Part shown: piece by piece, positions 892 to 56,742 of the stretch
Layout of the letters: every line of letters begins with the position of its first letter
How positions within the stretch are numbered: position 1 is the first letter of the stretch
Assembly: GCA_040757335.1 (NCBI GenBank)
Contig: JBFLXB010000012.1
Coordinates: forward strand, 15,246-79,245
Length of the DNA stretch: 64,000 bases
Origin: Nitrospirota bacterium
GTDB lineage: Bacteria; Nitrospirota; Nitrospiria; 2-01-FULL-66-17
Reading direction: 5' to 3'
Translations under genes and position numbers: made by a program
The notes under the pieces: model-generated
The model's input: only the letters and a program-made list of their open reading frames with translations
Database searches by the model: none
What the model was told of the DNA's origin: nothing

Positions 892-927
892 GAAATCCCC
901 CCGGTTCCCCCCTTTTTTAAAGGGGGG
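892..927. repeat. C6/G6 hairpin element (GAAATCCCCCC-GGTT-CCCCCCTTTTTTAAAGGGGGG), copy 1 of 3.
   Basis: Palindromic CCCCCC-T6-AAA-GGGGGG immediately 3' of the histidine kinase gene. The same 35-bp element recurs at 46315..46349 and, inverted, at 46394..46429. Confidence 0.6.
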
Positions 928-25238: not shown

Positions 25239-25256
25239 GTTGACGGATTTGCCAGA

Positions 25257-25366: not shown

Positions 25367-25525
25367 AGCGCATTTAGCCCGAGAATATATGAACATCGTC
25401 ATGAGATGGGGATGCAGATCTCCCAGAATGGACCCTGCGGTAATTCAGCTCCAAACCCTATGAAGAATTCGCTATAGGAGACAGGTTCGAGGCAGTATGG
25501 ATCAGTTTGTCGTGTTGGGCGTTAG

Positions 25526-26641: not shown

Positions 26642-26652
26642 CGGATCGGCGG

Positions 26653-26760
26653 AATAGTGGTACATCGTCACCTGTTCATATTATGAACAGGATTTGATTG
26701 CGGGCTGCAGGTAATCCTCGGCCCTTTTTCTGATTCTTGGTGTTCAGACTATGAACGCCT
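26653..26760. repeat. Roughly 110-bp intergenic repeat, copy A2, containing the palindrome CTGTTCATATTATGAACAG (26672..26690).
   Basis: See copy A1. It is directly upstream of the regulator gene. Confidence 0.7.
26672..26690. promoter_or_regulatory. Second copy of the 19-bp palindromic operator-like site, upstream of the Rex-like regulator gene.
   Basis: CTGTTCAT-ATT-ATGAACAG lies 87 nt upstream of the regulator start. Confidence 0.45.
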
Positions 26761-26776
26761 CGTAGTCATCGGGAAT

Positions 26777-27364: not shown

Positions 27365-27374
27365 GCAGCAAGCC

Positions 27375-28172: not shown

Positions 28173-29464
28173 GCGCTCCGATGATCGAGGTCGAGAACAT
28201 CGGCAAATCGTTCCGGACGTATTCGAGCCAATGGCACCGCTTCCGAGGGTGGTTCGGAGCGGGTCCTCGGCGATACGCTGATCACTGGGTGTTGCGAAAC
28301 GTCTCATTTGCAGTCGGGGCGAGCGAATCCATCGGTATCCTCGGCCGTAACGGTGCGGGGAAGAGCACCCTCCTCAAGCTGATCGTCGGGACCCTCGCAC
28401 CCTCTGAAGGCCACGTGAAGGTCGGGGGCCGCATCAGCGCGATCCTCGAATTGGGGATGGGCTTCAACGCCGAATTCACCGCCCGCCAAAATGTCCTGTA
28501 TGGATGTGGACTGTTGGGCTACAACCGGGACGAAATCGAGTCGGCGATGCCGGAAATCGAACGCTTCGCCGATATCGGTGAGTATTTTGATCAACCCCTA
28601 CGCACCTCCTCCAGCGGCATGCAGATGCGGGTAGCGTTCGCGGCCGCTACCGCGTTTCGCCCGGACGTGCTGATCGTGGACGAAGCTCTTTCGGTGGGCG
28701 ATCTCTTTTTTCAAGCAAAGTGTTTCGAGCGGATCGGCGAGATGAAGGCGTCTGGTACCACGCTGCTCTATGTGTCACATGCGGCGGGAGATATTGCGAA
28801 ACATTGCGAGCGTGCCCTGTTCATCAAGGAGGGCAGGCTCCTCATGGATGGGCCGGCACGTGAGGTCTCAAATGTGTACCTGGACGATCTCTTCGGAAAG
28901 AGCGCGCCCCACCAAAGAACCGTACGATCAGCTCAGGCTGCTAACGAAACACGGTTTGCCGCAGATAACGTCGAGCGCTTCCACACGCGGCCTTTTTACC
29001 GAAAAGACGAGCATCGGTGGGGTGTTGGCGGGGGACGTGTTCTCGATTTCTTGGTCGAGGTCGATGGCGAAGCATTTCCTTCCGCTATCTATTCACATCA
29101 AAGGATGCGAGTCTCGTTTAAGGTTCATTCTGAGCAGGAACTCGCGAAGCCCATATACGGGTTGCTGATCAAGACGATCGAGGGGATCTACGTCTACGGT
29201 ACCAACTCCAAATTTGCGCAACCAGGAGTGACCCCGTCGTCCGTACCTGCGGGCGATAACCGGGTGGTGTCGTTCGAATTTCCCATGATGTTGAACACTG
29301 GGGCTTACCTGATTTCCCTGGGAGTCTCGAATGAGGATGACAGCGGGCAGGTCGTGCCCATCGATCGGCGGTATGACTCTGTCCTGATAACGGTGACGAA
29401 CGGGCAGCAGGGATCGGGGCTTGTCGATCTTGCAGCCCAATTTGAATGCCACAAGGCCGCATGA
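28169..29464 (+). CDS. wzt: Polysaccharide export ABC ATPase with a C-terminal O-antigen terminus-binding (Wzt_C-like) domain.
   Basis: Walker A GRNGAGKST, the LSSGMQMRVAFAAA signature, and Walker B LIVDEALSVGD. About 180 extra C-terminal residues form a beta-rich domain as in E. coli O9a Wzt. Confidence 0.85.
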   Translation: MSAPMIEVENIGKSFRTYSSQWHRFRGWFGAGPRRYADHWVLRNVSFAVGASESIGILGRNGAGKSTLLKLIVGTLAPSEGHVKVGGRISAILELGMGFNAEFTARQNVLYGCGLLGYNRDEIESAMPEIERFADIGEYFDQPLRTSSSGMQMRVAFAAATAFRPDVLIVDEALSVGDLFFQAKCFERIGEMKASGTTLLYVSHAAGDIAKHCERALFIKEGRLLMDGPAREVSNVYLDDLFGKSAPHQRTVRSAQAANETRFAADNVERFHTRPFYRKDEHRWGVGGGRVLDFLVEVDGEAFPSAIYSHQRMRVSFKVHSEQELAKPIYGLLIKTIEGIYVYGTNSKFAQPGVTPSSVPAGDNRVVSFEFPMMLNTGAYLISLGVSNEDDSGQVVPIDRRYDSVLITVTNGQQGSGLVDLAAQFECHKAA

Positions 29465-31737
29465 GCATCGAGCATCGCCAGTCCATTCCCTCGCTCGTAG
29501 CAGCACTGCCGGAGGTATATCAACCCATTTATGGCCATCCGGAAATATCGTGGTCGGCCTCGCGCGAATGCGGTGACCGCCTAAACGAAATCGTAGCGGT
29601 ATATGAGGCGTTGTCGGCAAACCACCGGCGACCTCTGCGTGTGCTGGATCTCGGCTGCGCACAGGGATTCATCAGCCTTAGCCTGGCCGCACAAGGCGCT
29701 GTCGTGGTCGGAATCGACAACCTGGCGGCCAATGTCGCCGTCTGCAACGCGTTGCGTGAGGCGAATCCGACGTTTGATGTTCAGTTTCGCGAGGCCGCGA
29801 TCGAGTCCACGATCGAACACCTGAACCCCGGGGAGTTCGACCTGGTGCTCGGGCTCAGTGTGCTTCATCATCTGTGTCACCGGTACGGTAAAGACAGAGT
29901 TCGCGAATGGACGACCGCCTTGACCGCAAAGGCTGAAATCGCGGTGTTTGAACTTGGCGTCGCGAGTGAGCCGCTCGACTGGGCGAAATCCTTGCCTGAA
30001 GACGAGCGATATCTACTCGACGGCGTTCCGTTTGTCCATGAGCTGTCACGTTTTCCGACCCATCTGTCCGAGATTATGCGGCCGCTCTATGTGTGCAGTA
30101 GCCGGTATTGGTATTTGGATGGAAAGCTGGGTGCGTTTGCCAAATGGACAACCAGCTCCCATTCCCTCGCCGGAGAGGCTCACGAGGGGACGCGCCGGTA
30201 CTTCTTTGGCGAAGGGCAACTCGCGAAGGTATTTCGGCTGACTGGACGGCTAGCCAAACCAAATCGCGATGAAATTGAGCAGGAGGCCGAGTTCCTGGAT
30301 TCCCCTCCGCCCGGGTTTCCACGCGCGCCGTCATTGTTTACCAAAGGCACCACCGACCGTGAGGCCTGGCTCGCCAGAGAGGCCCTGGGCGGCGATCTGT
30401 TGATTGATCTGATACGCGGGCAGGTCGCCTACGACAGCAGGGCAATCTTGCTGGACGTGCTGGATCAATTGTGTGCTTTGGAGGAAGTTGGGCTCTATCA
30501 CAGAGACGTCAGGGTCTGGAACGTCATCGTGGGGCCGGACGGCAGAGCCTCGCTCATTGATTTCGGTGCCATATCCAAGAAACGGGAAGATTGCATTTGG
30601 CCAAGCGATGTGATCCTTTCGTTTGTTATTTTCGTCCGAGACGTTTCTGCACGGAGTGTTGATCGTGCTTTTCCACGGCAGCCATTCATCAGCCCATATA
30701 ACTTGCCAGACCCGTTCAATAGGTGGATTTTGAGCGTGTGGCATCAGCCAGTGGCTGTCTGGAGTTTCAAGCTGCTCAGAGAGAGTCTGCAAAACCTCCC
30801 GGATCGTTCTGATCAGCCGGATATCATTGGCGAAGCACAAGCTCTGTGGATACAAGCCATTGAGCGGCATCTTGATGGACTGGGTTCGTACGCCAGCCGT
30901 ACTCAGATGGTGAGCAGCGACCTAGCCAATCAGCTTTCTCAGGTGCGCACTCAGATCGAAACGCTGCGCCAAGACCTAGCTGCGCAACTGCATGCGCAGC
31001 AACATGCGCAGGCGCTTGCCGATGCACGCCTGCAGGAGCTCCAAGCAATCTACTCCAGCCGTTCGTGGCGCATGACGGCGCCACTCCGTCAGGGAGCGGT
31101 ATTCGCCAGGCGCTGGGTGGGCCGCATCGCCAATGTCGAATGGACCGTAGGCAGACTTCCGCGGCGTTGGGCGGGTTACACTGCAATCCGTCGTATCGGC
31201 GGGATAGTGCTTCGGCCCTTCCGAAGAGTTCGGCATCGCGTCAAACGGGTCGCACCGGCTGTCGACACAAGAACCCGCATAGGACAGGCAGTCCCGGGTG
31301 CCGCACCTACTCCATCGGAGTCTGAGATCGCACCGGCCATTAACACTATTCGACATCGGATCGTGGAGCAATTGGATAGCTATGTCGCTTGGCAGGAGAG
31401 TCATCCCGTCAGTACGCTGGAAAGAAAGCTCTGGGAAGATGGTCTGCGCATCGACGCCACGGTGTATCCGGTGGGCGCGTTGCGAAGACTACCGGAGGCC
31501 TATCTGTTTGAGGCTCTCAGCATCCTGTTATTTAAACGCCCCCTCGAAAAGATGCCGATGATCAGTGCTCTTGGGAAGCTCCGTCTCCGGAGGGGGCTGA
31601 TACTCGTGTTGTGCACCGTTCTACCAGGCCGCCGCGCACGGATTTCCGGGCTGTACAGGCGAGTGATTCGCGATGTCTTGTCGGTGAGCCCGCCCATACT
31701 GGCGTTTGCCAGAAGGATCTATTTCCGGGTCCGATGA
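29461..31737 (+). CDS. WbdD-like bifunctional chain terminator: SAM methyltransferase, protein-kinase-like domain, coiled-coil, C-terminal domain.
   Basis: MTase motif I VLDLGCAQGFISLSLA. Kinase catalytic loop YHRDVRVWNVIV and DFG (SLIDFGAIS). A long heptad region follows (LSQVRTQIETLRQDLAAQLHAQQHAQALADARLQELQ). ATGA coupling with wzt. An alternative start lies at 29446. Confidence 0.7.
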   Translation: MSIEHRQSIPSLVAALPEVYQPIYGHPEISWSASRECGDRLNEIVAVYEALSANHRRPLRVLDLGCAQGFISLSLAAQGAVVVGIDNLAANVAVCNALREANPTFDVQFREAAIESTIEHLNPGEFDLVLGLSVLHHLCHRYGKDRVREWTTALTAKAEIAVFELGVASEPLDWAKSLPEDERYLLDGVPFVHELSRFPTHLSEIMRPLYVCSSRYWYLDGKLGAFAKWTTSSHSLAGEAHEGTRRYFFGEGQLAKVFRLTGRLAKPNRDEIEQEAEFLDSPPPGFPRAPSLFTKGTTDREAWLAREALGGDLLIDLIRGQVAYDSRAILLDVLDQLCALEEVGLYHRDVRVWNVIVGPDGRASLIDFGAISKKREDCIWPSDVILSFVIFVRDVSARSVDRAFPRQPFISPYNLPDPFNRWILSVWHQPVAVWSFKLLRESLQNLPDRSDQPDIIGEAQALWIQAIERHLDGLGSYASRTQMVSSDLANQLSQVRTQIETLRQDLAAQLHAQQHAQALADARLQELQAIYSSRSWRMTAPLRQGAVFARRWVGRIANVEWTVGRLPRRWAGYTAIRRIGGIVLRPFRRVRHRVKRVAPAVDTRTRIGQAVPGAAPTPSESEIAPAINTIRHRIVEQLDSYVAWQESHPVSTLERKLWEDGLRIDATVYPVGALRRLPEAYLFEALSILLFKRPLEKMPMISALGKLRLRRGLILVLCTVLPGRRARISGLYRRVIRDVLSVSPPILAFARRIYFRVR

Positions 31738-34700
31738 GCCTCATGCCGATGTTTTCACACTTTTCCGGGCGCATCGTGCAGGTGATTGAAGGGCTGGATC
31801 TCCATGACGCCGTGTCCAACCATGTCCTGAGTCTCGACCGGACTCTTCGTGAGGACTACGGGCTCAGGACCGAGATTTTCGCAGGAGGTTCGCATCCAGA
31901 GAGAGAGCAATACGTTCGGCATATTGCCTTACTGGAGCTGGACGAGCGGGATATCGTGATTTATCACTACTCCGGCTACGCGGAGCACACGGCGGAGAAG
32001 GTCGCGAGCCAGAAGGCGATCAAGATCCTTCACTATCACAACATTACACCGCACGAGTTCTTCCGGCCAGGCAGTCACCTGTACCAACACTGTCGCGAGG
32101 GGCGCCGGCAGCTCGTCGACCTTCTTGACCGATTCGATCTCTTTACCGGTGATAGCCAGTACAACATCGATGAACTGATTTCCCTCGGCATCTCGAAGGA
32201 CAAGACGCAAGTGCTTCGAATTGTTCTCGACACTACCATGGCCGAGCGCCAGGTCTCGCAGCCGGCGCCTCGCAATGTGCTGTTCGTAGGCCGAATTGCG
32301 GAGAACAAGAGGCAGGATCGGATCGTGGAGGTCTATTCACGTCTGCTGAAAGCCGGACACCAGCTCGGGAAGCTGGTATTGGTTGGCAGATACGATTCCG
32401 GCAGCCCGTTCTACAAGAGATTAATGGAAACTGTTCGAACGTTGGATTTGCAGGATCGTGTCGAGGTCATGGGGAGGATTGGACAGTCCGAGCTTAATGA
32501 GCAGTATGCGAATGCGGGGCTGTTTCTTTCGATGAGCGAGCATGAAGGATTCGGCGTTCCGCTGCTCGAGGCGTGCCGCCACGATATCCCTGTCTTGGCG
32601 CTCGCCCGCACGGCTGTTCCGGAGACCCTTCAGCACTCACCCGGCCTCTTTGAGACCGACGCGGAGCTTGTACAACTCGTGGCCCGGATCGAGAAGGACC
32701 CGTCGTTTCGGGAGGCGCTCCTTGCACACCAACGAGCAGTACTCGCGAGCTATAACAATGAAGTCCACAATCAGCTTGCGAGACTGCTGAATCGTCTGAT
32801 CCCGCAACCGGACACGTACACGAGCGTCAGTATTGTCATCTGTACCTACAACCGTGGAGATCTGCTCGATCGGGCGCTGGACTATTTGCAGCGTCAGCAC
32901 GACCCGCGCTGTGAGGTCGTGGTGGTGGACGGCCCCTCGACCGACAACACCGGCGAGGTCATCGACAAATGGCGTCACCGCATCAAGGTCGCCAAGAACT
33001 CAGAACGCAACCTGTCGATCTCTCGAAATATTGGGATTCGACTCGCTGCGGGCGATATCGTTGCGTTTATCGATGACGACGCGTTGCCGTTCGGTGACTG
33101 GGTCGGAGCTCTGCTTGCTGAATACAACTCCGTGCCCCGCGCCGTTGGTGGTATCGGTGGCGTGACATATCTTGCGGGCTCTCTGGAGTTCCAGGCAGAG
33201 GACATAGTCGTTGACTCATACGGCCGAGCCACGCTGAATCCCACTCGTGACGAGACACTGCGATCTGACAGGTTTCGCACGCAGCTTGGGACGAACTCAT
33301 CGTTCAAGAGGAAAGTCTTGCTAGAAATCGGCGGGTTCGATGAGGAATATGACTATTTCTTGGATGAATCTGATGTATGCATGCGAGTTCTTCGCGCTGG
33401 TTACCGGCTGGTTTGTTCGCCTCAACTGTTCATTCGACATGAGTTTGCACAGAGTGACAACCGGATCAATAAGTACCGTTATAACTGGTACTCCATCTGC
33501 AAGAACACGGCCTATTTCGCTCTCCGCTTTAACACCGGGAACCCGACCGACATCATTTCTGCAGTTCGAGAGCAAATCGCGCAGGATCGCGTCGCGAAAC
33601 TCACAGAGGGGCTGAAGAGAGGAGTGGTCGCGCAGGACGACTTTGACGCAATGGGCCGCGACATTTGGCGCGGAGTGGAAGATGGCATTAGGCACGCGGC
33701 AGGCCCACGCCATCTGTTGCACGACGCCGATTCGCCAAGCGCTTTTCTGCACTATCATACGGAAGCACGCGTTTTCACACCGCTGCACGTCATGCTGGTC
33801 ACGAAGGAGTTCCCGCCCTTTACCCCAAGCGGCGGGGTAGGGACGCTGTTTTATCACTTGGCCAGCGAGCTCTTGCTGATGGGGCATCGCGTCAGCGTGA
33901 TCGCTCAGGGGCCTGAAGAGAGTAGGCATCAACGAGGGCGCTTCACGCTGCATCGGATACCTGCGGTCTCAACGAGCACCTTTGGCAGTGACAGCGCTGT
34001 TGTTGAGGGAAGTCTCAATTGGTCGATGCGTGTGGCGGAGATGCTCCTCGAGATACACCGTCGCGATCCCATATCGGTGATCGACACGTGCGTGTGGGAC
34101 TACGAGATGTACGCGTTTGCGGCCTACCGACCGCGGGTAGACATTCCGTTGGTCGTTCGACTTGTCACGCCGTTTGCGGTGGCCTGTGAGAGCAATGGTT
34201 GGAAGTTCACCGAGCGCGAAAAGGACCTTGTGTGTGAGCTGGAGCGTGGGTTGATCGACATGGCGGACTGCGTCATCCCGATCAGCGACTCGATCAAGGA
34301 GACGTTCACGAAAGTCTACGGGCTCAACCCTGATAAGCGCTGGCACACGGTACCCGCGGGTCTGGCCTATTGGCCATCGTTCGAAGTCGATAAGGACTAT
34401 GCCGAGATTGCCCATCTACCAGAACTTGCCGTCGCCAAGGAGAGCGGCAAGTTTATCTTTCTATTTCTGGGGCGCCTTGAGCCTCGCAAAGGGATCGATG
34501 TGTTCCTTTCTGCTGTCCAGCATTTCGTGGAACGACATCCGATGCGTGATGACTGTCTCTTTGTCGTGGCCGGTAAGGATTGCATGCGACTGAGCGAGCG
34601 GTTGCACGAGTATCTCGACCGAGCGGCGAGAGCGCGCGTGCTGTTCACGGGCGAGCTATCGCTGGGCGATCGTGACAAGGTCTACAGTGCCGCCGATGTG

Positions 34701-35945
34701 GTGGTGTTTCCCTCGCGGTATGAGTCCTTTGGGCTCGTGCCACTCGAAGCATTTGTGCATGGCAAGCCGGTGATTGGCGCTAATGCGGGCGCCATACCTG
34801 AAGTGGTGCAACATGATCGCTCCGGCCTTCTCTTTGAGGACGGAGATCCGGGAGCCTTGGCGGATTGTCTTGAACGCCTATTGGATGATCGAGCGTTGTG
34901 CCGCCGTCTCGGGCAAGGCGCGAGGCATCGCATCCGGGAGTTGTCTTCGGCGAAGATGGCGCTGAGAAGCGAAGAGGTTTATCGCCTAGCAAGAGAGCGA
35001 ACGTTTTATCGACAATATCACAACGTAACAATAAACGAGATAACCAAGGACAGTTCTCCAATATCTATTGATGAGAAATCATTGAGTTGGTTAGATGTTC
35101 CTCGCAAGGATTTCATTGATTACGTGATACATCGAGATCCATTACCATTTGACGAGGTTCCGCCTGACGATAATCAGTACATAAAGAAGCCGACATTCAT
35201 GATAACCCAGATGCACCGTTTGTGGTTGACGGCGCGAATAATTGATAGCCACTTAGAGAAGAGAGAGAATGGTGTCTTTTTAGACGTAGGCGCATTTCCA
35301 TTTTCGATGGCGATAATTCTCAGAGAGTATCTGAAATATAAGGGAAGAATTACGGCAACGATCAATTTGCCTCTTCGCGAGTCATGGAAAAGTGAATTAG
35401 ACAGAAGAGCGATCCACGTTCTCTATGCGAACCTTGACCCGTATGTAAGGGCAACCGATGAAGACGAGAACGTCGAGGAAATGGTCAATGGCATTGAATT
35501 AGAAAGTGAGTCGGTGGATTTCATCAATTGTTCTCATGTAATTGAACATTTATATCATCCCTTGGAGATGCTGAAGGAGATGTATAGAGTGCTAAAAGTA
35601 GGAGGGAAGCTGCTAGTTTCCTCTGACAATGCTCTTATGCTTAACACACTATTACATCTCTGGTCGCTCAGTGACTTTCTGCATGAGCCTGTGGAGGGGA
35701 CAGCGGCGATGTCGTTCGGCTTTTGGAGAGGACATAACAGATTTTTCACAGAAAAAGATACAGGGACCATGCTCAAAAAGGTTGGGTTCAGGATCATCGA
35801 GAATCATTTTTATGAAGTGTTGTACAACTCGTTCTGTGAGGACTACTTTCGCCATCCAATAGTGACAATACCTAGGTGGAGGGCAGATATCCTAACTCGA
35901 ATTCCGGAACACCGGAACGAACTAATTGTAGTTGCTGCAAAATGA
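31734..35945 (+). CDS. Giant multidomain glycan polymerase (GT4 - GT2 - GT4 - class I SAM methyltransferase), about 1400 aa.
   Basis: GT4 EX7E motif MSEHEGFGVPLLEACRHDIPVLA. GT2 motifs SIVICTYNRGDLL...VVVVDGPSTDNT...IDDDA. A second GT4 (FLGRLEPRKG...SRYESFGLVPLEAFVHGKPVIGANAGAIPEVV). C-terminal MTase_11 (FLDVGAF...VDFINCSHVIEHLYHP...VLKVGGKLLV). The last roughly 1 kb has markedly lower GC. ATGA coupling with the upstream gene. Confidence 0.8.
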   Translation: MSLMPMFSHFSGRIVQVIEGLDLHDAVSNHVLSLDRTLREDYGLRTEIFAGGSHPEREQYVRHIALLELDERDIVIYHYSGYAEHTAEKVASQKAIKILHYHNITPHEFFRPGSHLYQHCREGRRQLVDLLDRFDLFTGDSQYNIDELISLGISKDKTQVLRIVLDTTMAERQVSQPAPRNVLFVGRIAENKRQDRIVEVYSRLLKAGHQLGKLVLVGRYDSGSPFYKRLMETVRTLDLQDRVEVMGRIGQSELNEQYANAGLFLSMSEHEGFGVPLLEACRHDIPVLALARTAVPETLQHSPGLFETDAELVQLVARIEKDPSFREALLAHQRAVLASYNNEVHNQLARLLNRLIPQPDTYTSVSIVICTYNRGDLLDRALDYLQRQHDPRCEVVVVDGPSTDNTGEVIDKWRHRIKVAKNSERNLSISRNIGIRLAAGDIVAFIDDDALPFGDWVGALLAEYNSVPRAVGGIGGVTYLAGSLEFQAEDIVVDSYGRATLNPTRDETLRSDRFRTQLGTNSSFKRKVLLEIGGFDEEYDYFLDESDVCMRVLRAGYRLVCSPQLFIRHEFAQSDNRINKYRYNWYSICKNTAYFALRFNTGNPTDIISAVREQIAQDRVAKLTEGLKRGVVAQDDFDAMGRDIWRGVEDGIRHAAGPRHLLHDADSPSAFLHYHTEARVFTPLHVMLVTKEFPPFTPSGGVGTLFYHLASELLLMGHRVSVIAQGPEESRHQRGRFTLHRIPAVSTSTFGSDSAVVEGSLNWSMRVAEMLLEIHRRDPISVIDTCVWDYEMYAFAAYRPRVDIPLVVRLVTPFAVACESNGWKFTEREKDLVCELERGLIDMADCVIPISDSIKETFTKVYGLNPDKRWHTVPAGLAYWPSFEVDKDYAEIAHLPELAVAKESGKFIFLFLGRLEPRKGIDVFLSAVQHFVERHPMRDDCLFVVAGKDCMRLSERLHEYLDRAARARVLFTGELSLGDRDKVYSAADVVVFPSRYESFGLVPLEAFVHGKPVIGANAGAIPEVVQHDRSGLLFEDGDPGALADCLERLLDDRALCRRLGQGARHRIRELSSAKMALRSEEVYRLARERTFYRQYHNVTINEITKDSSPISIDEKSLSWLDVPRKDFIDYVIHRDPLPFDEVPPDDNQYIKKPTFMITQMHRLWLTARIIDSHLEKRENGVFLDVGAFPFSMAIILREYLKYKGRITATINLPLRESWKSELDRRAIHVLYANLDPYVRATDEDENVEEMVNGIELESESVDFINCSHVIEHLYHPLEMLKEMYRVLKVGGKLLVSSDNALMLNTLLHLWSLSDFLHEPVEGTAAMSFGFWRGHNRFFTEKDTGTMLKKVGFRIIENHFYEVLYNSFCEDYFRHPIVTIPRWRADILTRIPEHRNELIVVAAK

Positions 35946-36150
35946 AGGCCGCGATTGGTATGTTAGGACGTCTTATGGCTTCGTCGTTATAAAGAGTCAT
36001 TAAGCTCTCTCTTTCGGCGCTTTGGGTGGTGGTGCGTCACCCAGTGACGCAGGTCAGTGACTCGGGCAGACCTGGTGGACCACTAAGACGAATGCCGATT
36101 GGAAATACACCGCGGCATCATTGGGCGAGGCGATAGGAAAGGCGTGAGTC

Positions 36151-36981
36151 ATGTCTGAATGGCGTAATGACGTATTGAAGACCAGAGTTGACCATGTATT
36201 CGAAAAGATTAAGACGATTCCAAGTGATCTCAGATCGGGGCGATGCTTAGACATTGGGTGCGGAATGGGTGGTGGTGTCATTGCCGCATTGAAGCACGGC
36301 GCTTCACTGTCCGTAGGTATCGACCGGAATCTGAATGAGTTTCAACATGATATGAATTTTGCGAGGTTTGGAGAGGCCTGTAATTTCTTTCAGGTCAATG
36401 CCGACCAAGCAGTGATGATCCAGGCCGACGTCTTTAAGTGTGATGTCTTTCGTGGCTATTTTGACTACTGTATCCTTGTCGACACAATTGAGCATGTCCC
36501 AAATCAGCGTGAATTTATTCGCTACGCATACAGATCCCTCAAGCCGGGAGGGGTCCTGCTAGTAGATACGTGTCCTTTGTACTATAGCCCGGTCGGACAT
36601 CACCTATGGCAATGGTTCCCAAAGGAATCGGATCCGTGGGCGCATTTACGCTCAGACTTCGATGAGCGTTTGAAAGCGAAAGGAGTTGACCAATGGACAA
36701 TCGAGCGTTATCGGCAACTAAACCGGGTGACATACTCAGAAGTGATAGACATGGTCTCAGAAGCTGGGTTTACTGTTGTGAGGACAAATCAGCAAGCGCC
36801 GCGTAGTGAAATGGTGAGTCTTTATGAGAAATATGGCGCTTTGATTGATGTCGAAATCCCTGTTCCGAAGGACTGTCTATTCCAGGACTGGATAGAGGTT
36901 GTGGCGAGGAAAGACGGGTGGTTAAAGCGTCTAACAAAAAGGCTCGGCCGTCGGGTGAGGAGGATAGCGGGCCGGTCTTGA
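36151..36981 (+). CDS. Class I SAM-dependent methyltransferase.
   Basis: Motif I CLDIGCGMGGGVIAAL and post-I/II motifs (...LKPGGVLLVDT). Confidence 0.75.
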   Translation: MSEWRNDVLKTRVDHVFEKIKTIPSDLRSGRCLDIGCGMGGGVIAALKHGASLSVGIDRNLNEFQHDMNFARFGEACNFFQVNADQAVMIQADVFKCDVFRGYFDYCILVDTIEHVPNQREFIRYAYRSLKPGGVLLVDTCPLYYSPVGHHLWQWFPKESDPWAHLRSDFDERLKAKGVDQWTIERYRQLNRVTYSEVIDMVSEAGFTVVRTNQQAPRSEMVSLYEKYGALIDVEIPVPKDCLFQDWIEVVARKDGWLKRLTKRLGRRVRRIAGRS

Positions 36982-37010
36982 AAGGTTAAGGAGGAATCGG
37001 GACAAGTGTT

Positions 37011-40881
<3,871 letters not shown>

Positions 40882-45281: not shown

Positions 45282-45323
45282 CCGGTTTACCGGTCCGCCG
45301 GTTCGCCGGTTCGCCGGTTCAGG
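45282..45323. repeat. Imperfect 8-bp tandem repeat (CCGGTTCG-like, about 5 units).
   Basis: CCGGTTTACCGGTCCGCCGGTTCGCCGGTTCGCCGGTTCAGG directly after the GT4 stop. Confidence 0.5.
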
Positions 45324-45409
45324 AGCATCGAGCACCCCAGTGTGTCCCTCTTTAACCGGCCAACCGGTCCGTTTGATTTTTATTGGTCGATAGATTAGCC
45401 TTCACCACC

Positions 45410-46309
45410 ATGCACGATCGGGATACACGTCCGGGGGCGTCGCTCATCATCCCGGTGCACAACGAGGCGATGAACATCGCGGACCTGGTCAAGCGCGCCC
45501 GGGCCGCGCTCGCGCCCGACGATGAAGTCCTGGTGGTGGACGACGGCTCGACCGACAACAGCGGGCAGTTGGCGCGCGACGCCGGGGCACGAGTTGTCAG
45601 CCACCCCTACCGGATGGGCAACGGCGCCGCGATCAAGACGGGGATCCGTCAAGCCCGCGGCGGCGTCCTGGTGATGATGGACGGGGACGGCCAGCACAAC
45701 CCCGCCGACATCCCGCGCCTGCTGGCCCAAATCGGGCCCTACGACATGGTGGTAGGCGCGCGCGCCGGCGAGTCCCAGAGCGACGTGCACCGCTGGCTCG
45801 GGAACCGATTCTACAACGTGTTCGCCTCCTACCTCACCGGCCGAAAGATTCTGGATACCACGTCGGGGTTCCGGGCGATCAAGGCGGGCTTGGCCAAGCG
45901 ATTCGTGTATCTGTTGCCGAATGCGTTCTCGTATCCGACCACGCTGACCATGGCCACGATCCGCGCGGGTCACAGCGTCACGTTCGTGCCCATCGTGACC
46001 GCACGGCGCAAGGGCGAGAGCAAATTGCACCCCATCCGCGACGGATTCCGGTTTTTGGTCATCATGTTCAAGATCTCCACGCTCTATTCCCCGATCAAAG
46101 TGTTCCTGCCCGTCAGCGCCGTATTTTTCCTGACCGGCTTGTGTTATTACTTCTACACCTTCCTCGAATTCCGCCGCTTTACCAACATGTCCGCCCTGCT
46201 GTTCATCAACGCGGTGATCATCTTCCTGATGGGCCTGGTGTCGGAGCAGATCGCGCAGATGCGGTTTGAGCATAGCGAACGCATGGACCAGCACGACTCG
46301 GAACCGTGA
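45410..46309 (+). CDS. GT2 polyprenyl-phosphate glycosyltransferase (DPM1/GtrB/ArnC-like).
   Basis: LIIPVHNEAMNI, VVDDGSTDNS, VMMDGDGQHNP, and two C-terminal TM helices. Confidence 0.8.
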   Translation: MHDRDTRPGASLIIPVHNEAMNIADLVKRARAALAPDDEVLVVDDGSTDNSGQLARDAGARVVSHPYRMGNGAAIKTGIRQARGGVLVMMDGDGQHNPADIPRLLAQIGPYDMVVGARAGESQSDVHRWLGNRFYNVFASYLTGRKILDTTSGFRAIKAGLAKRFVYLLPNAFSYPTTLTMATIRAGHSVTFVPIVTARRKGESKLHPIRDGFRFLVIMFKISTLYSPIKVFLPVSAVFFLTGLCYYFYTFLEFRRFTNMSALLFINAVIIFLMGLVSEQIAQMRFEHSERMDQHDSEP

Positions 46310-46314
46310 GTCAT

Positions 46315-46429
46315 GAAATCCCCCCCTCCCCCCCTTTTTCAAAGGGGGGTAATGGGTAGCCGCTGACCAGAGGTCCTTCAAGGACCGTCAAGTCCCCCCC
46401 CTTTAACAAAGGGGGGAGGGGGGGATTTG
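46315..46429. repeat. Composite inverted repeat built from two inverted copies of the C6/G6 hairpin element, flanking the central palindrome GGTCCTTCAAGGACC.
   Basis: 46315..46349 is GAAATCCCCCCTCCCCCCCTTTTTCAAAGGGGGG. 46394..46429 is its reverse complement (CCCCCCCCTTTAACAAAGGGGGGAGGGGGGGATTTG). The centre is 46372..46386. Confidence 0.7.
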
Positions 46430-46533
46430 CTGACCTTGCCCCGCTTAACGTCTGTTACTTCGGCACCTACTCGTCTGGCGAAGGTTATCCCGTCAATCGC
46501 GTTCTCATCGAAGGGCTGCGGAGGGCCGGGGCC

Positions 46534-47601
46534 GTGGTCTGGGAGTGCCGGGCCTCAATGACGGGGGACGAGGGGCCGGCCGCAGCGGAGCGATGGAAGG
46601 CGGCGCGGGGTCCGCTGGCGTGGCCCTGGCTCGGGGCGCGGTGGGCCTGGGCGTGGGCGCGGTTGATGTTTCGGTTCCTGATCGGTCCTCGTACCGACAT
46701 CGTTATCGTCGGGTATCCGGGCCATGTGGACGTGTTACTCGCGAGCCTCCTCACACGGCGGCCGGTGGTCCTCAACGCCCTCTTGTCTCTGCACGACACC
46801 GTGGTTAACGACCGCAAACTGCTCGCCGAACGGTCTCTCGGCGCCCGTATCCTGCACGCGCTGGACCGGCTCGCGTGCCGCGTCGCGGACCTCGTGCTGT
46901 TGGATACCCAGGCGCACATCGACTACTTCCGCGCGGAGTTCGGGTTGCCCGCGGAGCGGTTTTATCGGGTGTGGGTCGGGTCCGTGCGCGAGGGGCGACT
47001 GGTCGCCCCTCGCGCGTCCGGGACGCCGCATCGCGCATTGTTCGTCGGGACCTTCATTCCGCTCCACGGCGTCGGAGCGATCCTCGATGCCGCGACGCGG
47101 CTCGAACAATCCGACACGCGAGTCACGGTTCGTTTGATCGGGCGCGGGCAGGAGCTTGCGGCCATCGCGGAGCGGATCCGGCAATCACGCCTCTCCGGCG
47201 TCGAGCTGGTCGATAGCTGGATCAGAGGGGAGGATTACGAGCGAGAGCTGGCCGAGGCCGATATATGCCTGGGCATCTTCGGCGCCACGGCCAAGGCGCA
47301 ACGCGTGATCCCCTCCAAGGTCTACGACGCGCTGGCCGCGGGCCGCCCCATCATTACCGCCGACACCCCGGCGATCCGCGAGCTGCTGACCCACGGCCAG
47401 GATGCGTGGCTGTGCCCGGCCCACGACGGCGCCGCGCTGGCCGAGGCTATTCTCACATTGGCCCGAGACGAAACGCTTCGCGGGTGTCTGGCCCGCGGTG
47501 CGCGCCGCACCTACGAGACGCGGTGTTCGCCGGAGGTGATTGGGAGGGACGTGGTGGCGAGATTGGAAGGGCTGGTTAGGGAAAAAGGCGTTATCCGATG
47601 A
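46534..47601 (+). CDS. Glycosyltransferase family 4 with a possibly disrupted 5' end. The conserved N-terminal CYFGTY... segment is in frame upstream of the annotated GTG but has no start codon.
   Basis: C-terminal GT4 motifs are present (...RPIITADTPAIRELLTHGQDAWLCP). In frame, 46441..46533 encodes PLNVCYFGTYSSGEGYPVNRVLIEGLRRAGAVVWEC. The frame runs back through the hairpin repeat to a TAG at 46357, with no ATG/GTG/TTG in between. Confidence 0.6.
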   Translation: MVWECRASMTGDEGPAAAERWKAARGPLAWPWLGARWAWAWARLMFRFLIGPRTDIVIVGYPGHVDVLLASLLTRRPVVLNALLSLHDTVVNDRKLLAERSLGARILHALDRLACRVADLVLLDTQAHIDYFRAEFGLPAERFYRVWVGSVREGRLVAPRASGTPHRALFVGTFIPLHGVGAILDAATRLEQSDTRVTVRLIGRGQELAAIAERIRQSRLSGVELVDSWIRGEDYERELAEADICLGIFGATAKAQRVIPSKVYDALAAGRPIITADTPAIRELLTHGQDAWLCPAHDGAALAEAILTLARDETLRGCLARGARRTYETRCSPEVIGRDVVARLEGLVREKGVIR

Positions 47602-47648
47602 ACGTTGTTCGTTGTCCGGTCAACCGACAACCGACAACGAATTTCGAA

Positions 47649-48137
47649 CTACTTCAACGCCTTGACGTCCTTCAGCACCTGATTGTGGTGATCGTCGACT
47701 TTGACCTTGGGGTAGATCTTGGCGATCTTGCCCTGTTTGTCGATCAGGAACGTGGTGCGCTCGATGCCCCAGTATTCCTTGCCGTACATCTGTTTGAGCT
47801 TGTACACGCCGTACGCTTTGGAGGCGGTTTGGGTCTCATCGCTCAGCAAGGGGAACGACAGGGAGAACTTGTCGCTGAACTTTCGGTGTGAGTTCAGGTT
47901 GTCGAGGCTCACGCCGAGAATCGCCGCGCCCGCTTTTTCATAGTCCTTCGAGGTATCCCGGAACCCGCACGCCTCGACCGTGCATCCCGGCGTGTCGTCT
48001 TTGGGGTAAAAATAGAGCACCACCGCCTGTTTCCCCCGGAACTCCTTGAGCGAGATCGTCTTGCCGGTGCTGGCCGGAAGCGAAAACTCCGGAGCGGAAT
48101 CACCCTCTTTGAGCGGCTGGTCGGTCCGTGTCCCCAT
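47649..48137 (-). CDS. bcp: Thiol peroxidase Bcp (peroxiredoxin, AhpC/TSA family).
   Basis: GAGGAG RBS. LKEGDSAPEFSLPASTGKTISLKEFRGKQAVVLYFYPKDDTPGCTVEACGFRD has the canonical T/PxxC peroxidatic motif. Confidence 0.9.
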   Translation of the reverse strand: MGTRTDQPLKEGDSAPEFSLPASTGKTISLKEFRGKQAVVLYFYPKDDTPGCTVEACGFRDTSKDYEKAGAAILGVSLDNLNSHRKFSDKFSLSFPLLSDETQTASKAYGVYKLKQMYGKEYWGIERTTFLIDKQGKIAKIYPKVKVDDHHNQVLKDVKALK

Positions 48138-52933: not shown

Positions 52934-54214
52934 ATGAAGATTCTCGTCATCGGTGGGGGGGGGCGCGAGCACGCGTTGGTTTGGAAGCTCGCGCAGAGTC
53001 CGCGCGTCCGCAGAGTCTTTTGCGCGCCGGGTAACGGCGGCATCGCGGCGCAGGCGACTTGCCTGCCGATCGCGGTGGACGACGTCGACGGTCTTCTCGC
53101 TGTGGTGGAGCGCGAAGGCATCGACTTGACCATCGTGGGACCGGAGGCGGCGTTGGCGGCGGGGGTGGTGGATCGATTCGTCGCCGCAGGGCGGCGGATC
53201 GTGGGCCCGAGCCGAGAAGCCGCGCAACTCGAGACCAGCAAAGCATTCTCCAAAGCGTTTTTGCAGCGACACGGCATCCCCACCGCTAAGGCGGCGGTGG
53301 TCCGATCGTTGGACGAGGCCCTGGCCGTTCTGGATCTGCATCCGCTGCCGGTGGTGATCAAAGCCGACGGACTCGCCGCCGGGAAAGGCGTGGTGGTGAC
53401 GGCCGATCGCGAGGAGGCGCGCGGCGCGGTGCGCGCGATGATGGGCCAGCGGGTGTTCGGGACCGCCGGTGACACGGTGTTGATCGAAGAATGCCTTGAA
53501 GGGATGGAGGCCACGTGTATGGCGTTCTGCGACGGCCGATCGTTCGTCATGATGCCCGCGGCGCAGGATCACAAACGGGCGGAGGACGGCGATCGTGGAC
53601 CGAACACCGGCGGCATGGGCGCATACGCTCCCACCCCCTTCGTCACGGCCGACGTGTTGGCGGCGGTGCGGGCGCGGGTGTTTGAGCCTGCGCTGGCGGG
53701 GATGGCGGCGGAGGGACGGCCCTACCGCGGGATCCTGTACGCGGGACTGATGCTGACGCGGGATGGCCCCAAGGTGCTCGAGTTCAATTGCCGGTTCGGA
53801 GATCCCGAAACACAGGTGGTGCTGCCCCTGTTGGAGAGCGATCTGGTCGAGGTGGGCGAGGCCATCGTGGACGGGCGGTTGGACCGGCTTCCCGTGCGCT
53901 GGAGCAACCGTACCGCGGTCTGCGTGGTGGTGACCGCCAAGGGATACCCGGGCGACTACCAACGGGGCGACGTCATCTCGGGCCTCGACCAGAGTCTCGA
54001 TGACAGAACGTCCATCGTCTTCCACGCGGGCACGGCGCGTGAGGGCGGTCGTCTCGTGACCGCCGGAGGCCGCGTGTTGGGCGTGACGGGCGTGGACACG
54101 ACGCTGGCTGCGGCGCGCGAGCGGGCGTATGCCCGCGTTCGAACGATTGCGTTCGGAGGGGCGGCGTATCGCTCGGACATTGCAGCGCGGGCGGTGACGC
54201 CGTCGTCGGCGTAG
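52934..54214 (+). CDS. purD: Phosphoribosylamine-glycine ligase.
   Basis: MKILVIGGGGREHALVWKLAQS..., 426 aa, ATP-grasp. Confidence 0.95.
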   Translation: MKILVIGGGGREHALVWKLAQSPRVRRVFCAPGNGGIAAQATCLPIAVDDVDGLLAVVEREGIDLTIVGPEAALAAGVVDRFVAAGRRIVGPSREAAQLETSKAFSKAFLQRHGIPTAKAAVVRSLDEALAVLDLHPLPVVIKADGLAAGKGVVVTADREEARGAVRAMMGQRVFGTAGDTVLIEECLEGMEATCMAFCDGRSFVMMPAAQDHKRAEDGDRGPNTGGMGAYAPTPFVTADVLAAVRARVFEPALAGMAAEGRPYRGILYAGLMLTRDGPKVLEFNCRFGDPETQVVLPLLESDLVEVGEAIVDGRLDRLPVRWSNRTAVCVVVTAKGYPGDYQRGDVISGLDQSLDDRTSIVFHAGTAREGGRLVTAGGRVLGVTGVDTTLAAARERAYARVRTIAFGGAAYRSDIAARAVTPSSA

Positions 54215-54349
54215 CCCGGCCATGAAGGGTCATCTGCTGCGTTGTCGCTGCGCTTCCGGTCCTCACGGTTTCGTAGGGGCGTATTGCAATACGCCCCTAC
54301 AGGTCCGGTGCTCGCTCCGCCTTGCAGCTGACGCCTTCCTGACCAGGCT
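54213..54349. mobile_element. MITE-like structured repeat, copy 4 (137 bp). Its centre is replaced by the 28-bp perfect palindrome GTAGGGGCGTATTGCAATACGCCCCTAC (54273..54300).
   Basis: AGCCCGGCCATGAAGGGTCATC...GACGCCTTCCTGACCAGGCT. The CGTAC...GTACG core is swapped for a new palindrome. Confidence 0.65.
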
Positions 54350-54358
54350 TTAGAAGAG

Positions 54359-55033
54359 GTGACTCAACAGTCTGACAGGTCGCTCCTCGCTCTTCGCTCT
54401 GGGGGGCTCTTTCGTCTGCCAACTCTCTCCCTGTTGATCGTAGGGGCGGTCGGTGGCGTTGCTGCGTTCTGGGTGTTGTTTCGGCTCGATCCGTTGTTCC
54501 GCGAGGCGATCGCGCCCTGGCGCACGCCGACGGTCCGGGCCGTCATGGAATGGGTGACTACGTTCGGGGAGGGCTGGCTGCTGGGCGTGGGGGCGCTCGC
54601 CATGGCACTGATCGCACACCGCGTGGGTCGGTCCGATTTGGTCCGAGCCGGACTGGTGGCGGTTCCGGCGATGATCGCCTCGGGCCTGTTTTCGCGCGTG
54701 ATCAAGATCCTCACGGCCAGACCGCGGCCCAGCGCGGCGGCGGGAGCGCTCGACTCCTGGTGGCCGTCGCTGGACGCGGCGTACAACTCGTTCCCGTCGG
54801 GGCACGCCACGTCGGCGTTCACGTTGGCCGCGATTTTGGCCGTGGCGGCGCCTTCAGGGCGGTGGTGGTTCTATGTCGTGGCCGGGGTGATTGCCTTCTC
54901 CCGGGTCGCGGTCGACGCGCATTTTGTCTCGGACGTGGTGGCGGGCGGGCTCCTGGGCTGGGCGACCGGGCGAATCGCTTTGGCGGTGGCGGACCGGCGG
55001 TGGCCCGTGCGTGAAGGGCCGGGACGAGCGTGA
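54359..55033 (+). CDS. PAP2-family lipid phosphatase (undecaprenyl-diphosphate / lipid A phosphatase-like).
   Basis: KILTARPRP...SFPSGHATSAF...SRVAVDAHFVSDVVAG are the three PAP2 motifs (KxxxxxxRP, PSGH, SRxxxxxHxxxD). Confidence 0.8.
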   Translation: MTQQSDRSLLALRSGGLFRLPTLSLLIVGAVGGVAAFWVLFRLDPLFREAIAPWRTPTVRAVMEWVTTFGEGWLLGVGALAMALIAHRVGRSDLVRAGLVAVPAMIASGLFSRVIKILTARPRPSAAAGALDSWWPSLDAAYNSFPSGHATSAFTLAAILAVAAPSGRWWFYVVAGVIAFSRVAVDAHFVSDVVAGGLLGWATGRIALAVADRRWPVREGPGRA

Positions 55034-56742
55034 CCGCCGAGCGAGCAGGCGCGGCCGCGCTGTTGATCGGATGCGCGGCCTTGTTTTTCTGGGGATTGGG
55101 CAGCGTCCCGCTGTTCGACGTGGACGAGGCGGTGTTCGCCGAAGCCACGCGCGAGATGCTGGCCACCGGCGACTGGATTACGCCGCAATACAACGGAGTC
55201 GACCGCTTCGACAAGCCCATCCTGTTCTACTGGCTGATGGCGTCCTCGTTCGCCCTGTTCGGAGTCGGCGAGTTCGGTGCGCGGTTCTGGTCGGCCGCGT
55301 TCGGCGTCGGCCTCGTCGCCCTGCTCTTGGTATTCGCGTGGCGGCGGATGGGCCCGCGAGTGGGCCTGCTGTCGGGACTGGTTGCGGCCACGTCGCTGGA
55401 AGTGGTGGTGCTCGCGCACTCCGCGATCACGGACATGGTCCTGATTTTTTTTATCACCGCCGGCCTGCTCGCGTGGTTTGCCGCGGTGCAGGCCAGCGAC
55501 CCGAGGGCGCGCGTGGACGCGGCGCTCGTTGGATCGGCGGCGCTGGCCCTGGCGGTGTTGACCAAAGGCCCGATTGGGATCGTGTTGCCGGGCCTGATTC
55601 TCACGGGGTTTCTCGTGCTCCGGGGCGGAATGCGGGAGGCGCTGACCAATCTGCCTTGGGGACGAATGCTGCTGGTGTTCTTGCTGGTGGCTGCTCCGTG
55701 GTACGCGTTGGAATTGCAGGCGCGAGGGTGGGCGTTCGTCGAGGGGTTTCTGTTGAAACACAACGTGCGACGGTTCACGGGCGTGATCTCCGGCCACGCG
55801 GGACCGGTGTATTATTATCTGCCGGTGGTGGCGGTAGGCCTCTTTCCCTGGACGGTATTTGCGTTGCCCGCCTTTCGCTGGGCATGGCCCTCCGGGTGGT
55901 GGGGGCTGCGCCGTCCGACCGACCGCGAGGCGCTCGCGCTTTTCCTGTTGGTCTGGGCCGGCGTGGTGTTTATCTTCTTCTCCGCGGCCGGCACCAAGTT
56001 GCCCAACTACGTGGCCTCGCTGTATCCTCCGCTGGCGTTGCTGGTGGGGATGTGGGCCGAGCGATTCGCCGCGCGGGCTCCGGGCGCGGATCGCTGGGTG
56101 GGCGGTGGGATCATCGTCCTGGTGGGCATCGCCCTGCTCGTGGCCATTGCGTTCGGAGGGCTGCCGTGGTGGCTGGAATGGGCGCGCGAGCGTTTTCCCA
56201 AGGCCGCGTACCTGCACCAGCCCATCGACGTTGGCTGGGGGCCTGCGGCGCTGGGAACCACGGTCCTGGTCGGTGCGGCGGCGATCGCCTGGCTGGCGCG
56301 ACAGCGACGCCCCGCGGCCACCATCGGCGCGATCGCCGCAACCACCGTGTTGACGGTGGGGGTCCTGCTGACGGCGGTGGCGCCCGTTGCCGCGTCGGTG
56401 ATCCAGGTGCCGTTGCGCGATATGGCGGTTCGCGCGGGCCTGGAGGCGGGGCCGGACGGCGGGATCGCGCTGTACGGATTGAACAAACCCAGCGTCGTGT
56501 TTTACGCGAAACGGGTGGTGACCGTGGTGGGGGAGAGCCGGCCGGAGGAGCTGGCCGCGTTGATGGTGCAAGACCGCAAATGGATGGTGATCACCAAGTC
56601 CGCGTGGGTCGAGCGGCTCAAGGGCGTGGCCGAGGTTTACGCGATCGAGACTCGCGGCGGCTACGTGTTGGCGTCGAACCGTTCCGGGTCCGAGGCGACT
56701 CCGACCGCGGTGAATGAGGCCCCAACCAATGCGCTCCGGTAA
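55030..56742 (+). CDS. ArnT/PMT-like (GT83/GT39) polyprenyl-phosphate-sugar-dependent glycosyltransferase.
   Basis: LFDVDEAVFAEATREMLATGDWITPQYNGVDRFDKPILFYWL matches the ArnT N-terminal catalytic loop (DE..Y.E..REML). About 12 TM helices. Confidence 0.8.
   Translation: MTAERAGAAALLIGCAALFFWGLGSVPLFDVDEAVFAEATREMLATGDWITPQYNGVDRFDKPILFYWLMASSFALFGVGEFGARFWSAAFGVGLVALLLVFAWRRMGPRVGLLSGLVAATSLEVVVLAHSAITDMVLIFFITAGLLAWFAAVQASDPRARVDAALVGSAALALAVLTKGPIGIVLPGLILTGFLVLRGGMREALTNLPWGRMLLVFLLVAAPWYALELQARGWAFVEGFLLKHNVRRFTGVISGHAGPVYYYLPVVAVGLFPWTVFALPAFRWAWPSGWWGLRRPTDREALALFLLVWAGVVFIFFSAAGTKLPNYVASLYPPLALLVGMWAERFAARAPGADRWVGGGIIVLVGIALLVAIAFGGLPWWLEWARERFPKAAYLHQPIDVGWGPAALGTTVLVGAAAIAWLARQRRPAATIGAIAATTVLTVGVLLTAVAPVAASVIQVPLRDMAVRAGLEAGPDGGIALYGLNKPSVVFYAKRVVTVVGESRPEELAALMVQDRKWMVITKSAWVERLKGVAEVYAIETRGGYVLASNRSGSEATPTAVNEAPTNALR

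Follow-up and report, generated by a model that had tools for sequence, protein, structure and literature searches.

A hairpin repeat of a widespread, DUF559-associated family at the start of a Nitrospirota glycosyltransferase gene

Palindromic repeats that settle within genes are known from several bacterial systems. Those of the REP/REPIN-RAYT type, with their REP-associated tyrosine transposase (RAYT) genes (Bertels & Rainey 2011, PMC3116915; Di Nocera et al. 2013, PMC3733652), have been found inside open reading frames (ORFs) for the GTAG- and CGTC-tagged families (PMC3733652), and the Rickettsia palindromic elements (RPEs) likewise occur inside ORFs (PMC10969869). The DUF559 domain has been placed in the Vsr clade of PD-(D/E)XK nucleases, which includes a homing endonuclease (PMC3424549), and a survey of inversions found DUF559 genes to be enriched near inverted repeats (PMC9881135). 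Here we describe a 113-nt hairpin element at the 5' end of a gene for a family 4 glycosyltransferase (GT4), located in a 64-kb stretch of a contig from a Nitrospirota metagenome-assembled genome (MAG); this whole stretch, the DNA analysed, is called the window below. The element is firmly identified as an insertion of a widespread repeat family, and the gene appears to be a natural case of survival of an insertion between codons 1 and 2, probably by means of a non-AUG start supplied by the insert. An earlier interpretation of the locus, made from the letters alone (the sequence-only reading), had concentrated on the missing GT4 start. The newer result is the repeat family with its DUF559 association, a system that is REPIN/RAYT-like and yet fails on both the tag and the Y1 transposase of its model.

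The inserted element and the native start

The element is a convergent doublet in which two inverted units, each 34-35 nt long, enclose a spacer (Table 1) with a 7-bp hairpin of its own at the centre (GGTCCTT-C-AAGGACC, 46372-46386). Beyond the stop of the upstream family 2 glycosyltransferase (GT2) gene, the order is GTC ATG, left unit, 44-nt spacer and right unit, followed by the GT4 codons GCT GAC CTT GCC CCG CTT AAC GTC TGT TAC TTC GGC... The RNA fold energy of the element is -80.1 kcal/mol (z = -5.2), and the C6-N9-G6 pattern has three occurrences in the window, where shuffled sequences predict 0.02. The 'C8/G7' runs of the sequence-only reading are a roughly right description of what are, precisely, C7, C7, T5 and G6 in the left arm and C8, G6 and G7 in the right. 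Comparison of the element with a plasmid collection gave no match; an Rfam scan of the whole window gave none at gathering thresholds and, with an E-value threshold, only generic miRNA-precursor hairpins. No intrinsic terminator was reported at the element in a scan of 45300-47700, and the ATTT at the end of the stem gives way to a G, its T residues belonging to the stem, unlike those of a rho-independent terminator. A convergent terminator was likewise rejected as an identity for the element, given sequence conservation beyond structure alone, the existence of singlets and the presence of copies inside ORFs.

The element is recognized as an insertion because orthologous GT2-GT4 junctions do not have it. 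The synteny GT4-GT2-GT4-AhpC is common to relatives, the GT2 homologues carrying PF00535, and the element is absent from this junction in five related contigs (L001, L002, L149, L151 and L159) with GT4 identities of 77-79%; L159, the contig with the closest GT2 homologue, is of the L001-type lineage. A scan of metagenome_contigs with the GT4 protein returned distant relatives only (≤46% identity) and no empty-site allele. In-silico deletion of 46316-46428 joins ATG 46313, which abuts the left end of the element, to GCT 46429 in frame and yields MADLAPLNVCYFGTY (M-ADLAPLNVCYFGTY), with the restored start lying 3 nt past the GT2 stop. That the ATG might be part of the element was considered and rejected, as an ATG in this register precedes 2 of ~150 family units, the chance expectation. 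The sequence-only reading was thus right about the insertion of a repeat, which is absent at orthologous junctions and belongs to a dispersed family. Its further suggestion that the insertion had removed the native start is probably not correct: the presumed start, ATG 46313, is still there, set apart from the gene, and exact deletion puts it back in frame. The most likely course is that the insertion parted the native start from the gene with no deletion of that start. Target-site duplications were sought in 41 elements, where flanking direct repeats of 2-4 nt occur at or near chance; the flanks in the window are CATG and GCTG.

In the element-free lineages, a GT2-GT4 spacer of 80-140 nt (gatcggccgtggaNaagNgggcatccgcggcg...cctcacgtacNNcccagtacgct) is conserved and has short palindromes inside it (L001 2900-3000; L151 55-175; L159 3450-3545; L149 1830-1910). 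This spacer may be a regulatory leader.

Translation of the interrupted gene

What has become of the gene behind the element? The GT4 frame is open from 46360 to 47601 with no stop; its translation from 46360 begins PLTRGPSRTVKSPPFNKGGRGGFADLAPLNVCYFGTYSSGEGYPVNRVLIEGLRRAGAVVWECR... and the product includes ...ADLAPLNVCYFGTYSSGEGYPVNRVLIEGLRRAG... The sequence-only reading described this region correctly: the CYFGTY segment runs in frame into the GT4 ORF, and back to the in-frame stop TAG 46357 there is no ATG, GTG or TTG upstream of GTG 46534. This GTG and ATG 46558 are the only canonical in-frame starts, and 5' of the GTG the only near-cognate in-frame codons are CTG 46363, ATC 46507 and CTG 46516. 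The NCBI product, MEW6682926.1, is annotated from ATG 46558 with 347 amino acids, a model that is almost certainly wrong; exact look-ups of P0001 and of the 355-residue ORF of the window found no record.

The protein has the C-terminal Glycos_transf_1 domain and the N-terminal Rossmann-like domain, starting with strand beta1, of a GT4 enzyme (GT-B fold, Glycos_transf_1), and its homologues carry PF00534, PF13692 and PF13524. Since a PDB sequence search matched PimA-type structures to the C-terminal half only, an AlphaFold model (51 sequences, pLDDT 94) was used for the N-terminus. In the model, beta1 falls on NVCYFG, alpha1 spans residues 21-32 and beta2 residues 36-41, with GTG 46534 at residue 36 and ATG 46558 at residue 44. 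By this model, a start at the GTG would lose beta1 and alpha1, in keeping with the loss of the first Rossmann strand that had been anticipated from the letters, and a start at ATG 46558 would lose beta2 as well. The first strand and helix of this domain are nearly invariant in the family. The possibility that orthologues begin at the equivalent of 46534 and do without CYFGTY is contradicted by all 30 close orthologues (63-79% identity), which keep the motif, bar a few truncated gene calls. Because the orthologue Met stands 1-25 residues upstream of CYFGTY, the family evidently tolerates N-terminal leaders of up to ~25 residues.

The fate of the gene can be judged from a second lineage with the same insertion. 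P0241, the second member of the 90%-identity cluster of MEW6682926.1 and 91% identical to the window protein, is encoded at a locus (L158) of a Logan assembly that was made independently, from run SRR28285590. The element recurs there in the identical position, with the same unique spacer and the same C7/T5/G6/C8/G6/G7 runs; L158 keeps the three stops (TAG now TAA) and the in-frame CCG CTG ACC, so that CTG 46363 and its CCGCTGACC context are conserved. The spacer (46350-46393) differs by 2 substitutions only. Between 46328 and 46533 there are no indels and the run lengths are identical, including a C4 tract; the sole run-length difference lies upstream of the stops, in the first C run, which is C7 in the window and apparently C6 in L158.

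Nei-Gojobori estimates between the window and L158 give, for the 35 codons at 46429-46533, a synonymous divergence (dS) of 0.244, a non-synonymous divergence (dN) of 0.040 and dN/dS of 0.17, with 2/1/6 changes at codon positions 1/2/3. The corresponding values for the 347 codons after ATG 46558 are 0.256, 0.052 and 0.205, with 24/17/59 changes. Under neutrality, finding at most three non-synonymous changes among nine has P = 0.016. The low ratio in the orphan 35 codons therefore disfavours a pseudogene or a truncation, and the substitution pattern makes it probable that the GT4 N-terminus is still translated.

The same figures bear on the proposal, raised in outline by the sequence-only reading, that the insertion inactivated GT4, leaving a recent pseudogene or a truncated protein made from GTG 46534 or ATG 46558 without beta1-alpha1. 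This proposal accords with the absence of a canonical in-frame start between TAG 46357 and the GTG, with the -80 kcal/mol hairpin and the three-frame stops that separate the old ATG from the ORF, and with the truncated 347-residue form annotated at NCBI; moreover, the dN/dS argument would lose its force had the element been acquired lately, or on separate occasions, by the two lineages. It is opposed by the codon-position pattern of the orphan codons, which is like that of the rest of the gene, by their freedom from indels and stops in either lineage, and by the nearly invariant strand and helix that the truncated forms would be without. Close to the element, divergence is at its normal level (~10%), and it is therefore unlikely that the allele passed recently from one lineage to the other. 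On balance, we regard inactivation as unlikely.

We lean, slightly, towards a gene that remains functional, with the element inserted between codons 1 and 2 and the start displaced to a CTG within the element. On this account, a 113-nt non-autonomous element would have inserted between ATG 46313 and codon 2 of a GT4 gene translationally coupled to the upstream GT2 gene, before the split of two lineages that now differ at ~9% of GT4 residues, and the whole GT4 ORF, including the N-terminal Rossmann strand, would have remained under purifying selection. Ribosomes would begin at the old ATG, read a 17-codon upstream ORF (uORF) and in doing so melt the left arm of the hairpin; they would then stop at TGA 46364 and start afresh at CTG 46363, which overlaps it. 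Direct initiation at CTG 46363 would be an alternative. The enzyme would gain ~30 N-terminal residues (LTRGPSRTVKSPPFNKGGRGGF-ADLAPL...), partly from the right arm, which reads KSPPFNKGGRGGF in the GT4 frame; the stretch of the predicted extended product that is informative of the start site is GGFADLAPLNVCYFGTY.

Is CTG 46363 the start in present use? It was one of the options raised by the sequence-only reading and is now the leading candidate, as no other near-cognate codon stands in frame upstream of the N-terminal segment and this CTG is conserved in both lineages; the site itself we infer, and we consider the odds on it evenly balanced. The uORF stop TGA 46364-46366 overlaps CTG 46363-46365 (CTGA), and the CTG, at the partly open top of the hairpin, has an unpaired probability of ~0.5.

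Several points weigh against displacement of the start to this CTG. CTG is a weak initiator in the bacteria in which it has been tested, and no clear Shine-Dalgarno sequence lies 5-10 nt upstream of CTG 46363, which is placed inside a very stable hairpin. With a first run of C6, the uORF of L158 would end at TAA 46350, and the CTGA overlap would not be conserved; the L158 contig ends inside the left arm, leaving the ATG side unseen. Both the CTG start and re-initiation after the uORF are inferred from the sequence. The selection argument consists of nine substitutions together with the assumption of a single ancestral insertion common to both lineages. The element differs from that of L158 at 4/101 sites, less than synonymous sites do, which could reflect constraint or a younger age. 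Finally, the link of DUF559 to the mobility of the element, discussed below, is an association only.

Orthologues of the L002 type are also without a nearby canonical GT4 start (L002 3000-3080; gene calls of P0245; L149 1960-1975). Their GT4 begins at or overlaps the GT2 stop, and gene callers give either 402 amino acids, from a TTG 50 nt inside GT2, or a truncated 364. At the position of the ATG or TTG of many orthologues, three codons before the Cys, these genes have a CTG. Unusual initiation may for this reason be a habit of the clade, and non-AUG initiation of GT4 may be common in it.

A different way to restore the native start would be precise excision of the element from the DNA of a part of the population, an on/off switch operated perhaps by a DUF559 nuclease, or its bypass by ribosomes arriving from the old ATG. 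Exact removal gives a perfect in-frame start, the family, polymorphic for insertions among orthologues, is evidently mobile, and GT4 belongs to a surface-polysaccharide-type cluster; reversible insertions are known in clusters of this type in other bacteria. Yet no target-site duplication or flanking direct repeat is present to guide precise removal, the site is filled in both independent assemblies, and the 64-kb window has no DUF559 gene. For bypass, neither a pair of take-off and landing codons nor any other signal of the kind was identified. Excision or bypass is accordingly quite improbable.

The missing start could also be an artefact of a homopolymer-length error or a 1-nt error in the leader, or a product of phase variation, as had been proposed for the runs from the letters alone. 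The region is rich in homopolymers, with the first C run differing between the window and L158, and TTG 46427 and TTG 46436 are one frame off; a change of C4 to C5 at 46438-46441 would bring TTG 46436 in frame. Against this, L158 is identical in the run lengths of 46328-46533, right arm and C4 tract included, with no indel, and rescue by the left-arm runs is blocked by the three-frame stops within 46350-46366: after a -1 or +1 change there, the ribosome meets TAA 46350 or TAG 46357 in place of TGA 46364. The hallmark of a phase-variable tract, a homopolymer change that switches the frame of the ORF, was not found. We consider such an artefact or tract highly implausible. Displacement of the start within a functional gene remains the reading that we prefer.

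The repeat family and its association with DUF559

The family was sought in one genome per GTDB species (loci L003-L122); the search pattern, AAATCCCCCC-N(1-5)-CCCCCCTTTNNNAAAGGGGGG, fixes 28 bases. At least 120 matching stretches were found among these species-representative genomes, in many phyla, and the same pattern matched 90 viral-contig stretches of IMG/VR (L160-L242). The unit, AAAT-C6-x-C6TTTnnnAAAG6, has a near-unchanged sequence across more than 15 phyla as well as phage contigs. Its hosts include Nitrospirota, Desulfobacterota and other Deltaproteobacteria, Beta- and Gammaproteobacteria, Dehalococcoidia, Methylomirabilota, Acidobacteriota, Aminicenantes, Binatia, Nitrospinota, Omnitrophota, Brocadiia, Trueperaceae, Kapaibacterium and Bacillota MAGs, and span genomes from low to high G+C. 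Among the Beta- and Gammaproteobacteria, Chromatium okenii, Thiothrix caldifontis, Thiorhodococcus and Lysobacter are isolate hosts, and a complete Luteimonas genome also bears units. We are thus dealing with a repeat that is near base-for-base alike in Nitrospirota, Gammaproteobacteria, Desulfobacterota, Chloroflexota, Deinococcota, relatives of Bacteroidota and a Haemophilus phage. An origin of the units as sequencing adaptors or assembly artefacts was rejected, since isolates and complete genomes contain them, their sequence varies, and genuine genes carry them in frame. An apparent clustering of units at contig ends was also dismissed, the pattern-match loci being fixed 8-kb blocks.

The 120 listed loci hold 221 units, arranged as 17 simple 46-nt palindromes, 25 convergent doublets (spacers of 12-147 nt), 37 divergent doublets (spacers of 10-45 nt) and 3 tandem pairs, which makes 79 inverted against 3 direct pairs. 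Doublets often combine units of two types, G6 with the linker TAG and G5 with the linker TCAAT, and their spacers are homologous within a genome; three 31-nt spacers of one MAG, for example, have ~60-68% identity. Beside some units there are tandem arrays of a C5-6TTTnnnAAAG5-6 hairpin plus spacer, or short tandem repeats such as AGAAGTC x4 in L021 and GCAGTAT x4 in L059 (also L005, L090, L091, L094, L105 and L068), which suggests local expansion by slippage.

Copies of the unit are also found in frame within genes (L004, L021, L036, L087, L095, L096, L101, L122 and L152). Some lie within Pfam matches, those of RecJ (DHH), Tex (Tex_central_region), FGE-sulfatase and, in a solute-binding protein, SBP_bac_5, and others in GH3 and DNA methylase genes. 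Two radical-SAM orthologues have units at different positions, and each unit lines up with a gap in its counterpart. Haemophilus phage SuMu has in its portal gene the in-frame unit KSPLAPLFQRGE (L152 1501-1534), which is absent from the orthologue of a Mannheimia phage. The peptides added by in-frame units include NPPxPPFxKGGxGGF and KSPLxPLFQRGE. Units also create spurious peptides (IPPxPPFxKGG, KSPLxPLFQRGE) and probably many mis-called gene starts and ends in public annotation.

Which gene could serve the family? Beyond generic signalling proteins, no gene family is common to the 120 listed loci, and no transposase recurs beside the units. All eight loci found with small DUF559 genes of one subfamily are bracketed by units, within ~50 nt (L033 3340-3771; L092 941-1556; L121 3573-4109; L154 1448-2033; L155; L156/L157 1440-1900; L242 5705-6198). 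L033 is a Nitrospirota locus with the units closest in likeness to those of the window. In Nitrosomonas ureae (CP013341, L154 1-3408), which has at least five DUF559 paralogues, a block of DUF559 and units separates hsdM from hsdS in a type I restriction-modification system; its 682-residue hsdS call contains two more unit doublets. In Leptothrix sp. BB-3 (L155 1972-3155), an IS3-family insertion occupies the unit just 3' of DUF559 and parts AAATCCCCCCTG from the doublet. Thiothrix lacustris has the DUF559 gene inside a unit pair with a compensatory CCCCTCC/GGAGGGG variant, in other genomes the gene lies between doublets, and on the viral contig L242 it is bracketed by units. The proteins show a conserved D...E.DG..H core, with PF04480 matches at E = 3e-35 (L121) and E = 1e-32 (L092). 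Among the 120 best-listed DUF559 homologues, the C-terminus of 40 reads into a unit at residue ~120 (IPPxPPFxKGG or SPPTPLFQRGE). A tblastn search of the 1.88 Mb around units, with an E. coli RayT query, found no RAYT. Since no DUF559 gene was found in the 64-kb window, the GT4 element is taken as a non-autonomous copy.

We tentatively propose, at somewhat less than even confidence, that the C/G-run units and a subfamily of DUF559 proteins of ~120 residues form an undescribed REPIN/RAYT-like partnership with a nuclease of another fold, spread over more than 15 phyla and phages, whose copies inside genes are translated and one of which may supply GT4 with its start and extension. The literature that we covered, incompletely, has no description of the unit family or of its DUF559 link, which may be described elsewhere. 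The association offers a testable role for a very common domain of unknown function.

The features of the locus are collected in Table 1, with a second family copy in the window, a single unit in a 103-nt gap between two minus-strand genes. Elsewhere in the window, G+C falls to 50-58% across 24000-40000 (~16 kb), as against 62-68% in the remainder, with raised GC skew at 34-40 kb; this stretch may be a horizontally acquired island. A G9 run is located at 52955-52963, and AT skew is strongly negative (-0.35) at 54001-56000.

Table 1. Features of the GT2-GT4 junction and the second repeat copy, in window coordinates
Feature	Position	Strand	Basis
Single unit, second family copy, AAAT-C6-GGTT-C6-TTTTTTAAA-G6	893..927	+	Pattern match
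GT2 glycosyltransferase gene, upstream of GT4	45383..46309	+	ORF list; stop TGA 46307-46309; same frame as ATG 46313
Presumed ancestral GT4 start ATG 46313-46315, now head of 17-codon uORF MKSPPPPLFQRGVMGSR (then stop)	46313..46366	+	Three-frame translation; empty-site reconstruction
Inserted hairpin element, 113 nt, convergent doublet plus spacer, REPIN-like	46316..46428	.	Inverted repeats; fold; family membership; absence in orthologues; L158
Left unit, AAAT-C7-T-C7-TTTTTCAAA-G6	46316..46349	+	Sequence; inverted repeats
Spacer, 44 nt, stops in three frames	46350..46393	+	TAA 46350, TAG 46357, TGA 46364
In-frame CTG, candidate present-day start	46363..46365	+	Sole upstream near-cognate; conserved in L158
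Right unit, reverse complement, C8-TTTAACAAA-G6-A-G7-ATTT	46394..46428	-	Sequence; inverted repeats
Leader and beta1-loop-alpha1 coding segment (ADLAPLNVCYFGTYSSGEGYPVNRVLIEGLRRAGA), without canonical start	46429..46533	+	dN/dS; AlphaFold; orthologue conservation
Rest of GT4 ORF	46534..47601	+	ORF list; first canonical start GTG 46534

Comparison with described systems

The presumed route of GT4 translation resembles termination-reinitiation of the ATGA type, in that the uORF takes the old coupled start and its stop overlaps the CTG. It differs in the restart codon, a CTG, which is rarely used, and in an overlap that is apparently not conserved in L158.

As to the element itself, transposable elements of the miniature inverted-repeat type (MITEs) are similarly small non-coding inverted-repeat insertions that are polymorphic between relatives, and the gene-carrying form of Thiothrix lacustris has the look of a possible parent element flanked by terminal inverted repeats. 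Unlike MITEs, the present units are without target-site duplication and also occur as singlets and as head-to-head and tail-to-tail pairs. We know of no DDE transposase partner for them, nor of DUF559 as a transposase.

The RPEs provide a parallel for the copies inside genes, being palindromic repeats that stand in frame in protein genes and are translated as an extra peptide while the host protein is kept; here, too, units lie in frame in conserved domains and are gaps in orthologues. RPEs are, however, 100-150 bp long, confined to Rickettsia and without a known partner gene, whereas the present family is built on a 34-46 nt unit of C/G runs, crosses phyla and is associated with DUF559.

A further likeness is to the REP/REPIN-RAYT systems. 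Common to both are hairpin units of ~35 nt, which can stand alone but are mostly paired as inverted doublets folding into a long hairpin, doublet spacers that are homologous within a genome, copies that lie between genes and sometimes inside ORFs, and a small nuclease gene that is itself flanked by units. The flanked gene, however, encodes a DUF559 Vsr-like PD-(D/E)XK nuclease here and not a Y1 HUH transposase. There is no consistent GTAG/CGTC tag either: the flanks are variable (GTCATG and GTCAGC in the window), and GTAG or GGAG stands 5' of the unit only in some betaproteobacterial copies. REPIN families are, moreover, usually lineage-specific and vertically inherited, in contrast to a unit that is near-identical across phyla and phages. 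The consistent association of such units with DUF559 suggests that REPIN-like systems arose a second time, independently.

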